64,000 nucleotides of DNA from Promethearchaeota archaeon. GTDB taxonomy: Archaea > Asgardarchaeota > Heimdallarchaeia > Hodarchaeales > Hodarchaeaceae. Made by a program: the position numbers and the translations under genes. Under the pieces are notes generated by a model. That model searched no databases and was not told the DNA's origin. It saw only the letters and a list, made by a program, of their open reading frames with translations. Shown here one piece after another: positions 13,586-15,988 of this stretch; position 1 is the stretch's first letter; every line of letters begins with the position of its first letter. Location: assembly GCA_048938105.1 (NCBI GenBank), contig JBHLMN010000002.1, positions 64,001 through 128,000 on the forward strand, written 5' to 3'.

Positions 13586-15988
13586 ATGGCCAGTCTTGGA
13601 TTAGAATCATTAGATTTAAATTTTCAGGAGTCGAAAGTATATATCACCCTCCTCGCGTTGGGACCTCTTTCTCTTGGTGAAATAATTAAAAACACTGAAT
13701 TCACTTCAGCAGATACAATAAAATCACTTGAGAATTTACAGAATAAGGGATATGTCCATCAAATACCAGGTGTTGCAGATCGTTTTAATGCGATAATCCC
13801 TTTCAATGATCTAAAAGCCTCTACTAATACAACTATTTCACAGATGGAACATCTCGCCTCCCAACTTGATGACCATATAGCAAAGAAATTAGAGATTATT
13901 TTAACAAAAGTGCGTGAAGAATCTCAAAAGATAAGTGATGGTATAGAAACAGCTCGAACAGCGATTAATCAATCAGAAATGAAGGCTGAAGGTGATATTG
14001 AAGCAAGAATTGCAAGATACACTCTCGAAGTGGAACAGGGAACCGACCAGACAAAAAGTGACATTAAAAAAACATTTGAAACCAAACAAAGTGAACATCA
14101 AGCATTAATATCAAATTTAAAAGCACTATCAGATCAAAAAACAAATGAAATGAGTGCAAAATATCATGAAGTTAATCGACAATTCCTTGAGAAATATCAA
14201 GAGGGAATTGATCAATTAAAAGCCTCAGAGTCTCAACGAAACCAGTCTTTGACTAATATGAATGAAACATTGACTTCACAATTAAACGATTCTCTTACCC
14301 AAGGTATTCAGAATGTACATCAATCAATGGATGCAACTGGACAGACTTTATTCCAATCGATTGGTGAACGAAATGAAAAACTGAGTGCACACATTACAAA
14401 TGTCTCTGCTGAGATAGCGAGTACAGTCACTACAGTCAGTGAGGATGGCCAAGGTAAAATTGTGTCATCTCTTGGCTCATGTAACGAGAGATTTCAGCAG
14501 CAGCTCGAAACAAGTAAAAAGGATGCAATAGAAGCTTTTTCTGCTACACGCGACGAAATTAAGTTAAAAACCGACAATAGTGCTCAAAACTTACAAGAGC
14601 AGCTGAACGAAACTTTGGTGATCACCCAGGATCATATTATTGAAATGTTACAGCAAGCACAGGAAATGTTATCAACAAAGGTAGCTGAGGCTAGAAATAA
14701 GGTGGAGACTTCTCTCGGGGAGTTCTCAGAGGCAGTCAAATTGGAAACAGATAATGATGTTCAGAAAATTATTGTTAATACAGAATCAACATTTGGGGGA
14801 CTTACGCAAGATACACAGACCACTTACCAACAATCTGCTGAACAAATCGCTGCAGCATTCAATGGAATGATATCGGATGCGAAGGAGAAAACCGAGAAGA
14901 CCAAAGGGGACGCATTACTTGAATTACAGGAGGTTGTTGAAACTCTAAAAACTGAAATCATTTCGCAGTTGGAGCAGTTTAAACAAACCTTATCACCCCA
15001 AACACAATATCTAAACGATGAGCTTGCCAAATTTAAGACAGAGCTTACAACATCACGAACCCAAGCAATAGAAACATTCAACAGTATGATGGAAGATTTT
15101 AAATCTTCTGTTAACACGAAACACCAAGAAATCGAAATGTTCGTTACTCAAGAGATCAATGTTTTGTTAGAAAATACTAATCAATTTGTCGGAGAACTAA
15201 ATGAGCAAATAAAGAACTATGATACTAAATTTAATACTACTCTAATTGAATCAGCTGTTAAAGGTTCAGAAAAACTCATTGTTCAAATTCGAGAACTTCA
15301 CGAAAAAGTGGTTAATGTTGTGAATGAAATGAGTAAAAATGCTACAGATCAACTTAGCGCGACCAGTCAGTTGATTGCAGGTAGTATTCAAGCTGAGATA
15401 ACAACATTAGAAACAGAACTCACAGATTATTCTACAAAGTTTAAGGAAGTGACACAACAAAACGAGGAGGTGTTCAAGAACTATTTATTTTCACTAGAGA
15501 AGCTCTCATCTTTGGTAACAGATACAAAGCATCCTGAAGTTCAAACAGCACCAATTGTTTCTCGTGAAGCAGTATTAAATTATATACATCATATGTTTGC
15601 AAGGATGAAAGGAGGTATGACCCTATTAATTCCTCAAGTGAGCGATATCCCCATCGATATGATTCTCGAGACAAAGAATCATCAAAGAATTAACTTAGTC
15701 TCAGTTATAGATCCCAACACACATACTGATCTTTTGAAACGGCTATTTTCGAAACCCAATGTTCGTGTTAGAAGTGTAGATACTACAAAATTCGAGGACG
15801 TTGGAAAATATATTGCAGCTGATCGTGATGGTGAAGAGGTTATTATTGGTATTACAGAAGATCAGGGGGAAACAGTAGCAATCGCCAGTTATGCGGATTC
15901 CTTTGTTACATTGATGGGAAAGATAGTACTTGGGGATTACTTCCTAGCACGTTCAATTGAGATCACTCGTTCAGAGGTAGGAATGTAA
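13586..15988 (+). CDS. TrmB-type winged-HTH + ~570 aa coiled coil + C-terminal alpha/beta (TrmB effector-like) domain
   Basis: N-terminal ESKVYITLLALGPLSLGEI..LENLQNKGYV; long Q/E/K/T helical middle region; C-terminal globular domain (AADRDGEEVIIG). Confidence 0.8.
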   Translation: MASLGLESLDLNFQESKVYITLLALGPLSLGEIIKNTEFTSADTIKSLENLQNKGYVHQIPGVADRFNAIIPFNDLKASTNTTISQMEHLASQLDDHIAKKLEIILTKVREESQKISDGIETARTAINQSEMKAEGDIEARIARYTLEVEQGTDQTKSDIKKTFETKQSEHQALISNLKALSDQKTNEMSAKYHEVNRQFLEKYQEGIDQLKASESQRNQSLTNMNETLTSQLNDSLTQGIQNVHQSMDATGQTLFQSIGERNEKLSAHITNVSAEIASTVTTVSEDGQGKIVSSLGSCNERFQQQLETSKKDAIEAFSATRDEIKLKTDNSAQNLQEQLNETLVITQDHIIEMLQQAQEMLSTKVAEARNKVETSLGEFSEAVKLETDNDVQKIIVNTESTFGGLTQDTQTTYQQSAEQIAAAFNGMISDAKEKTEKTKGDALLELQEVVETLKTEIISQLEQFKQTLSPQTQYLNDELAKFKTELTTSRTQAIETFNSMMEDFKSSVNTKHQEIEMFVTQEINVLLENTNQFVGELNEQIKNYDTKFNTTLIESAVKGSEKLIVQIRELHEKVVNVVNEMSKNATDQLSATSQLIAGSIQAEITTLETELTDYSTKFKEVTQQNEEVFKNYLFSLEKLSSLVTDTKHPEVQTAPIVSREAVLNYIHHMFARMKGGMTLLIPQVSDIPIDMILETKNHQRINLVSVIDPNTHTDLLKRLFSKPNVRVRSVDTTKFEDVGKYIAADRDGEEVIIGITEDQGETVAIASYADSFVTLMGKIVLGDYFLARSIEITRSEVGM

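Follow-up and report, generated by a model that had tools for sequence, protein, structure and literature searches.

The window considered here is a stretch of 64,000 nucleotides from a Promethearchaeota archaeon (NCBI GenBank assembly GCA_048938105.1, contig JBHLMN010000002.1), AT-rich with 33-40% GC, in which a gene at positions 13586..15988 of the + strand (P0001) encodes an 800-aa protein made of a long helical rod with a globular domain at either end. This gene, hereafter the rod gene, is the sole long open reading frame in its interval and is present as a single copy in the source genome. It is located among the genes of an SMC-kleisin-kite system, between a putative kleisin gene (scpA, 16077..16934) that lies directly downstream of smc (16971..20558) and a pair of kite genes (scpB1, 12803..13369, and scpB2, 11600..12793). 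All four are on the - strand, and the rod gene is convergent with scpA and divergent from scpB1. An earlier note on this DNA, made from the letters alone, had described the same gene order, including smc and the 285-aa gene taken as scpA, and had read the rod-gene product as a TrmB protein stretched by a coiled coil and acting with SMC. The gene order is as it described, and the anatomy that emerges from the present analysis is, with high probability, a TrmBL2-type head on a stiff, antiparallel hendecad rod of fixed length.

The N-terminal domain (aa 6-70, 13601..13795, + strand) is a TrmB-type winged helix-turn-helix (wHTH), recognized by Pfam PF01978 at 3e-8 (33.9 bits, above the cut-off of 25.6) and by phmmer, which matches it to the TrmBL2 chains 5bqt, 5box and 5bpd at E 1e-5. 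At the opposite end, aa 654-798 (15545..15979, + strand) are predicted by AlphaFold2 (AF2) and Foldseek to form a phospholipase D (PLD)-like domain of the TrmB/TrmBL2 type that lacks the HKD motif. When aa 636-800 were modelled alone, AF2 reached a predicted local distance difference test (pLDDT) value of 86 and a predicted template modelling (pTM) score of 0.80, and the best Foldseek matches of the domain were TrmBL2 (5bpi, 5bqt, 5bpd) and the TrmB effector domain (2f5t), with E ~1e-6 and template modelling (TM) scores of 0.56-0.63; phospholipase D, NucT and FAM83 followed as lower matches. The sequence of this domain has no Pfam match, including Regulator_TrmB (PF11495). It comprises only ~150 aa and ends at aa 800, and the second, sugar-binding subdomain of TrmB is absent; therefore, the architecture is that of TrmBL2. 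Catalytic PLD activity was considered and rejected, as there is no HxK(x)4D motif and the His of the 'NHQR' sequence is lost in two distant homologues. Judging from the predicted structure, the winged helix and this catalytically dead PLD-like domain are a TrmBL2-like head. Motif and Pfam scans of the whole protein found no P-loop or other ATPase family, as the earlier note had stated, and its outline of an N-terminal winged helix, a helix of ~570 aa and a C-terminal globular domain is borne out by Pfam and AF2. A partial second copy of the C-terminal domain, spanning its aa 66-165 with 84% identity, was observed in one genome between the rod gene and scpA (L026, G012:C18, 8021-8311).

The rod itself is a strict hendecad (11-residue) repeat of ~51 repeats, and not the generic coiled coil of the earlier description, whose long continuous helix nevertheless stands. 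In the alignment-averaged hydrophobicity of aa 86-640, the dominant period is 3.67 residues (power 516 vs ~50 for the next), and the hydrophobic columns stay constant through 51 rows of 11, maintaining one register over ~560 aa. The core positions hold bulky I/L/V/F residues, and Thr, Ser, Gln and Glu are abundant in the rod. The rod carries a net charge of -36, its Lys/Arg fraction does not exceed 0.20 at any hendecad position, and there is no Lys/Arg belt at the polar-apolar boundary. All 20 of the 20 distant homologues tested share a period of 3.65-3.68, which remains phase-coherent over up to ~970 residues. Natural runs of pure hendecads of this length are unusual, which makes the rod of interest to coiled-coil structural biology. 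The length of the rod is equally strict: across 52 unique homologues from the genus, down to 42% identity, the only indel is a 7-residue insert (LITQVDG) found after aa 364 in three sequences, close to the geometric centre of the helical region at aa 359.5. The insert corresponds to about two helical turns, so the hydrophobic seam is nearly preserved. A length fixed to the residue within a lineage suggests the behaviour of a ruler or strut, unlike that of a linker.

The N-terminal half of the rod packs antiparallel on the C-terminal half about a dyad near aa 355, because three lines of evidence converge on this arrangement: the AF2 helices, a covariation peak and the mirrored hendecad cores. 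The full-length protein was modelled by AF2 as a monomer with 26 sequences. The model contains two helices, aa 73-354 (282 aa; 13802..14647, + strand) and aa 361-646 (286 aa; 14666..15523, + strand), followed by the alpha/beta domain at 654-798. The helices are separated by a break at aa 355-360 (14648..14665, + strand; pLDDT ~44), which is also the region of the indel and would be either the apex of a hairpin or the centre of an antiparallel dimer. The N-terminal half is free of indels in the 52 homologues, and the C-terminal half has the same period with a core that mirrors it. Covariation was measured as mutual information with average product correction, summed along all rod antidiagonals (~1100); it peaks at i+j = 706-713 with z 4.2 in an 8-wide window, vs 2.6 for the next-best antidiagonal. 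The hendecad cores occupy positions 2, 5 and 9 in the N half and 2, 6 and 10 in the C half; the 3-4-4 and 4-4-3 core spacings are cyclic permutations of each other and cannot by themselves discriminate the halves, and the two profiles coincide at i+j = 713 mod 11 alone (r 0.98). The mirror correlation of raw hydrophobicity fixes the register modulo 11 only and picks out no single dyad position. A mild enrichment of mirrored Gly/Pro positions in the rod was noted by hand count and is not used as evidence.

The earlier note had left the choice between a parallel dimer and a fold-back to structure prediction, and both the AF2 monomer and the covariation give an antiparallel arrangement. This arrangement could be adopted in two ways, which appear about equally probable: a fold-back hairpin of ~42 nm (~282 residues per arm) or an extended antiparallel dimer of ~84 nm. 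The covariation fits both alike, and intrachain and interchain pairing are not separable thereby. The monomer model weighs little towards the hairpin, since AF2, when given a single chain, would be expected to fold even an antiparallel homodimer back on itself. The extended dimer stays open because the short pairing helix of TrmB is itself antiparallel: in the helix after its wHTH, F81/I91' and F84/L88' pair between subunits (PMC4158304), corresponding to i+j = 172, and elongation of this intersubunit helix would yield an extended dimer. Moreover, most members have neither Gly or Pro nor a turn-forming cluster at the centre of the rod, through which the hendecad register is continuous; the 7-residue insert there nearly keeps the hydrophobic seam, and the pLDDT at the apex of the monomer model is only ~44. 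In the extended form, each end would consist of the wHTH of one chain and the PLD-like domain of the other.

Full-length homologues of the rod protein number 45, with lengths of 799-832 aa, and the close ones carry the labels Hodarchaeales, Heimdallarchaeota or Promethearchaeota; together with the AT-richness and the Ras-family GTPases of the window, these labels place the source organism in the Hodarchaeales, within the Asgard archaea. A profile search across Asgard genomes gave matches in 181 of 300, where open frames of ~750-1800 aa give matches to the domains of both ends; BLAST groups 23 such long rod proteins in one cluster. Members of the family, of 750-1900 aa with rods of ~520-1560 aa, occur throughout the Asgard archaea at 1-3 paralogues per genome. 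In a library of 1.84 billion representatives, the number of matches was 119 at E <= 1e-30 and rose to 764 with the threshold at E <= 1e-10, and every named member with the full architecture is from an Asgard archaeon. Over the rod alone, there are further matches to insect Perilipin-4 and to the spirochaete coiled-coil protein 'SpiroCoCo'. In the ESM Atlas, the long forms appear in Promethearchaeota clusters named 'hypothetical protein'. Literature searches on TrmB with a coiled coil, PLD-like domains, hendecads and Asgard winged helices returned no account of this combination. The TrmB-rod architecture is thus undescribed in searchable papers, as a variant within the known TrmB/TrmBL2 family. 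Among the closest archaeal relatives of eukaryotes, most sampled genomes encode between one and three proteins of DNA-binding type whose rigid rods measure tens of nm.

The nearest characterized relative is TrmBL2 (TK0471 / PF0496; PDB 5box, 5bpd, 5bpi, 5bqt), a nucleoid-associated protein of the Thermococcales. The two proteins share the order of a TrmB winged helix, a helix and a single PLD-like domain without a sugar-binding subdomain; however, TrmBL2 has only 264 aa and a helix of ~35 aa, compared to ~570 aa in the rod protein, and outside the winged helix the two are 11-13% identical. The TYD of TrmBL2 aligns to T44-I45-K46, with Tyr50-Asp51 replaced by Ile45-Lys46 in the rod protein, which is acidic and found in Asgard archaea rather than Thermococcales. 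With the sugar-sensing regulator TrmB (P. furiosus / T. litoralis; PDB 3qph, 2f5t), the rod protein shares the wHTH and the PLD-like first effector subdomain, and the antiparallel intersubunit helix of TrmB has the polarity proposed for the rod; the second, sugar-binding subdomain is missing, and the rod exceeds the TrmB pairing helix more than 15-fold in length. As to the hallmarks of the TrmB family, the wHTH, the antiparallel helix and the PLD-like domain are therefore present, while the Tyr50/Asp51 pair and the sugar-binding subdomain, which only TrmB and TrmBL1 possess, are absent. The reading of the protein as a stretched TrmB, advanced in the earlier note, is supported by the TrmB/TrmBL2-type C-terminal domain and the antiparallel pairing of the rod. 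There is no sequence relationship to the arms of SMC, Rad50 or MukB: the rod protein has no ATPase head, hinge or hook, and its pure hendecad repeat lacks the breaks typical of SMC arms.

The order scpA, rod gene, scpB1, scpB2 was found in all 14 of the genus loci with enough flanking DNA. In two species of the genus (G014 and G015), smc lies 69 kb off or on another contig, and scpA, the rod gene and scpB are still adjacent. In the sister family, which belongs to the same taxonomic order, smc, scpA and scpB are contiguous on one strand, with a scpA-scpB gap of 225-238 bp and no inserted gene, and a single scpB directly follows scpA as far as those contigs reach; the arrangement in G023 and G034 is similar. 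As the sister family and other Asgards keep smc-scpA-scpB contiguous and have their rod genes elsewhere, it follows that the rod gene entered this operon in the ancestor of the genus, splitting scpA from scpB. The insertion was accompanied by a duplication of scpB. Two side observations concern the same locus. Downstream of the intact smc of G015, three short copies of the last 27-31 smc codons were found (L093, G015:C7, 5661-5741, 8093-8185 and 9569-9649), which may be scars of the rearrangement that separated smc from scpA, or of repeated insertions. In G014, ~2.5 kb are inserted between scpB1 and the rod gene (L039, G014:C25, 6601-9153).

A mechanism consistent with this anatomy would start from the short antiparallel pairing helix of the TrmB family, which would have grown into 51 uninterrupted hendecads to give a stiff acidic strut of fixed length with a TrmBL2-like head. 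The ~42-nm hairpin would dimerize at the head, and the ~84-nm extended antiparallel dimer would have one head per end. The most likely job of such a protein is architectural: it would be nucleoid-associated and serve on DNA as a bridge, spacer or obstacle, and would not be a ligand-switched regulator; this role is put forward tentatively, as a proposal that falls a little short of an even chance. It presupposes DNA binding by the winged helix, which homology makes likely but does not assure. In this genus, the protein may in addition act on the SMC complex, by positioning or blocking it. TrmBL2 is known to coat DNA and to make it stiffer, and it is a documented Smc-ScpAB roadblock: in Thermococcus kodakarensis it stalls the complex at dif and elsewhere, and it sets chromosome domain boundaries (PMC11840125). 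This precedent makes an SMC role plausible, but a partnership of the rod protein itself with SMC is doubtful. More specific still, and rather improbable, is a DNA-anchored ruler, in which the 84-nm antiparallel dimer would bridge or space DNA and serve in this genus as a dedicated boundary or positioning element for the SMC-kleisin-kite complex. If this were true, the ruler would be an archaeal counterpart of the loop-extrusion roadblock, encoded within the SMC locus. A TrmBL2 derivative inside this locus is a concrete, testable candidate for Asgard chromosome organization.

Several observations weigh against an architectural role linked to SMC. The winged helix is slightly acidic and lacks the Tyr50/Asp51 pair by which TrmB and TrmBL2 read DNA. 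Tyr50, and also Asp51, matter for DNA recognition in these proteins, yet MreA is likewise without the Tyr and is nevertheless a DNA-binding regulator (PMC4158304). The rod gene is on the strand opposite scpA and scpB, hence not co-transcribed with them. As synteny in the genus extends over the entire 20-kb block, the adjacency may mirror shared descent only. Beyond this genus, to which the linkage is confined, no smc, scpA or scpB was found within 8-10 kb of a rod homologue in 22 loci (the sister family and 20 other Asgard loci). In closed genomes, the distance from the rod homologue to smc is 22 kb (G023), 345 kb (G034) and 334 kb (G048). The earlier note had taken homologues unlinked to smc in related genomes as one half of what would speak against its proposal, and this is what is seen outside the genus. 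Of its idea that the protein acts with SMC, the TrmBL2 precedent and the adjacency kept in G014 and G015 remain in favour, while the neighbourhood is conserved in one genus only.

Three other explanations should be weighed against the architectural one. The rod protein might be an ordinary TrmB-type regulator at the divergent promoter, controlling its own gene and scpB1-scpB2 and using the rod for oligomerization or sensing. Most members of the TrmB family do regulate (PMC4158304), and the divergence of the rod gene from scpB1 over 216 bp (13370-13585) is a typical regulator/target layout. However, the alignment of this intergenic region from 11 genus loci, in which the spacer varies from ~170 to 510 bp, contains no operator-like palindrome, the Tyr50 of the recognition helix is absent and homologues elsewhere have unrelated neighbours. 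As an exact-length 570-aa rod is also hard to reconcile with a local repressor, this explanation is considered quite unlikely. A stronger place is held by a cytoskeleton-like or segregation adaptor independent of SMC, that is, a DNA-anchored rod which would polymerize, dock onto another structure in the manner of RacA or work with a separate ATPase, as paralogues in other Asgards may. The Asgard-wide distribution, with its one to three paralogues per genome and rods of ~520-1560 aa, would suit such a function, and ABC-type ATPase genes stand beside the homologue in 4 of 22 loci. In some Heimdall-group genomes (L070, L071, L081 and L066), a gene for an ABC-type ATPase of 254-295 aa is directly beside a rod paralogue. 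Neither such an ATPase nor a second rod is found beside the rod gene in the window, though, and no neighbour is common to all 22 non-genus loci; the gene downstream of the f2 homologue (441 aa) is not a second rod. The adaptor is therefore regarded as unlikely.

The 11-residue period invites a further comparison. Perilipin-4 and the apolipoproteins share with the rod both this periodicity and a T/S/Q-rich polar face, and 3.67 is the period of lipid-binding 11-mers too; accordingly, the rod might be a giant amphipathic helix of the apolipoprotein/perilipin kind, through which the protein would attach DNA to membranes or lipid surfaces. In favour of this, insect Perilipin-4 is matched by the family profile across the rod (E 5e-56), and there are sub-threshold Pfam matches to Apolipoprotein A1/A4/E and ApoLp-III. 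The Apolipoprotein match scores only 64.1 bits against a cut-off of 90, however, so neither an above-threshold Pfam match nor a basic belt places the rod in these families. It is acidic rather than basic, with its charge of -36, a bulky I/L/V/F core and no Lys/Arg boundary. Its strict length, the restriction of the indel to the centre and the antiparallel covariation are better explained by a folded pair of helices than by a helix adsorbed to a surface. The lipid model is the worst fit among the rivals and very improbable.

The neighbours of the rod gene differ in how firmly they can be named. The smc gene has a Pfam SMC_N match (1.6e-42) and a weak hinge match, and is the only SMC found in the source genome with this query. 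Both kite genes match Pfam SMC_ScpB, scpB1 at 3.4e-18 and scpB2 at 4.4e-15 over aa 137-285, and they are the only two ScpB matches in the source genome; in Hodarchaeales, extra kite paralogues co-localize with SMC and kleisin genes (bioRxiv 10.1101/2024.01.07.573240). The true start of scpB1 is probably a conserved ATG at 13363. The second kite, scpB2, has long extensions on both sides, namely ~130 aa at the N terminus and an acidic tail. For the 285-aa protein, no match was obtained by Pfam, by a PDB profile or by PF02616 run on the whole genome. Three things speak for the name scpA: where the gene lies, that smc is next to it, and a lead from a protein language model, in which 26 of the 30 nearest ESM Atlas clusters belong to the ScpA set. 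The label used in the earlier note is therefore retained on these grounds, in the face of the missing Pfam and PDB sequence matches.

In the region between the rod gene and scpB1, conservation in the alignment of the 11 genus loci is limited to a pair of TATA-like boxes and one ribosome-binding-like site. An A/T-rich box resembling a B recognition element (BRE) and TATA element (13500..13515, + strand) is situated ~75 nt upstream of the rod gene; it is unique in the window and a putative promoter of this gene. The ribosome-binding-like site GGAAGTGA (13574..13581, + strand) stands just 5' of the rod-gene ATG and is kept in most genus loci. Upstream of scpB1, a conserved TATA-like box with an invariant TTATAT core (13420..13436, - strand) would provide a separate promoter for the scpB pair.

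Further from the rod gene, two Ras/Rab-family small GTPase genes are located just beyond scpB2 on the + strand (9984-10508 and 11042-11581; Pfam Ras 1e-46 to 1e-47), of which the more divergent species of the genus have one only. On the other side of the locus, a 460-aa protein with a strong helical periodicity of 3.59 is encoded at 23887-25269 on the - strand, beside two small-GTPase-like genes (22636-23196 and 23232-23771), and this block is syntenic across the genus.

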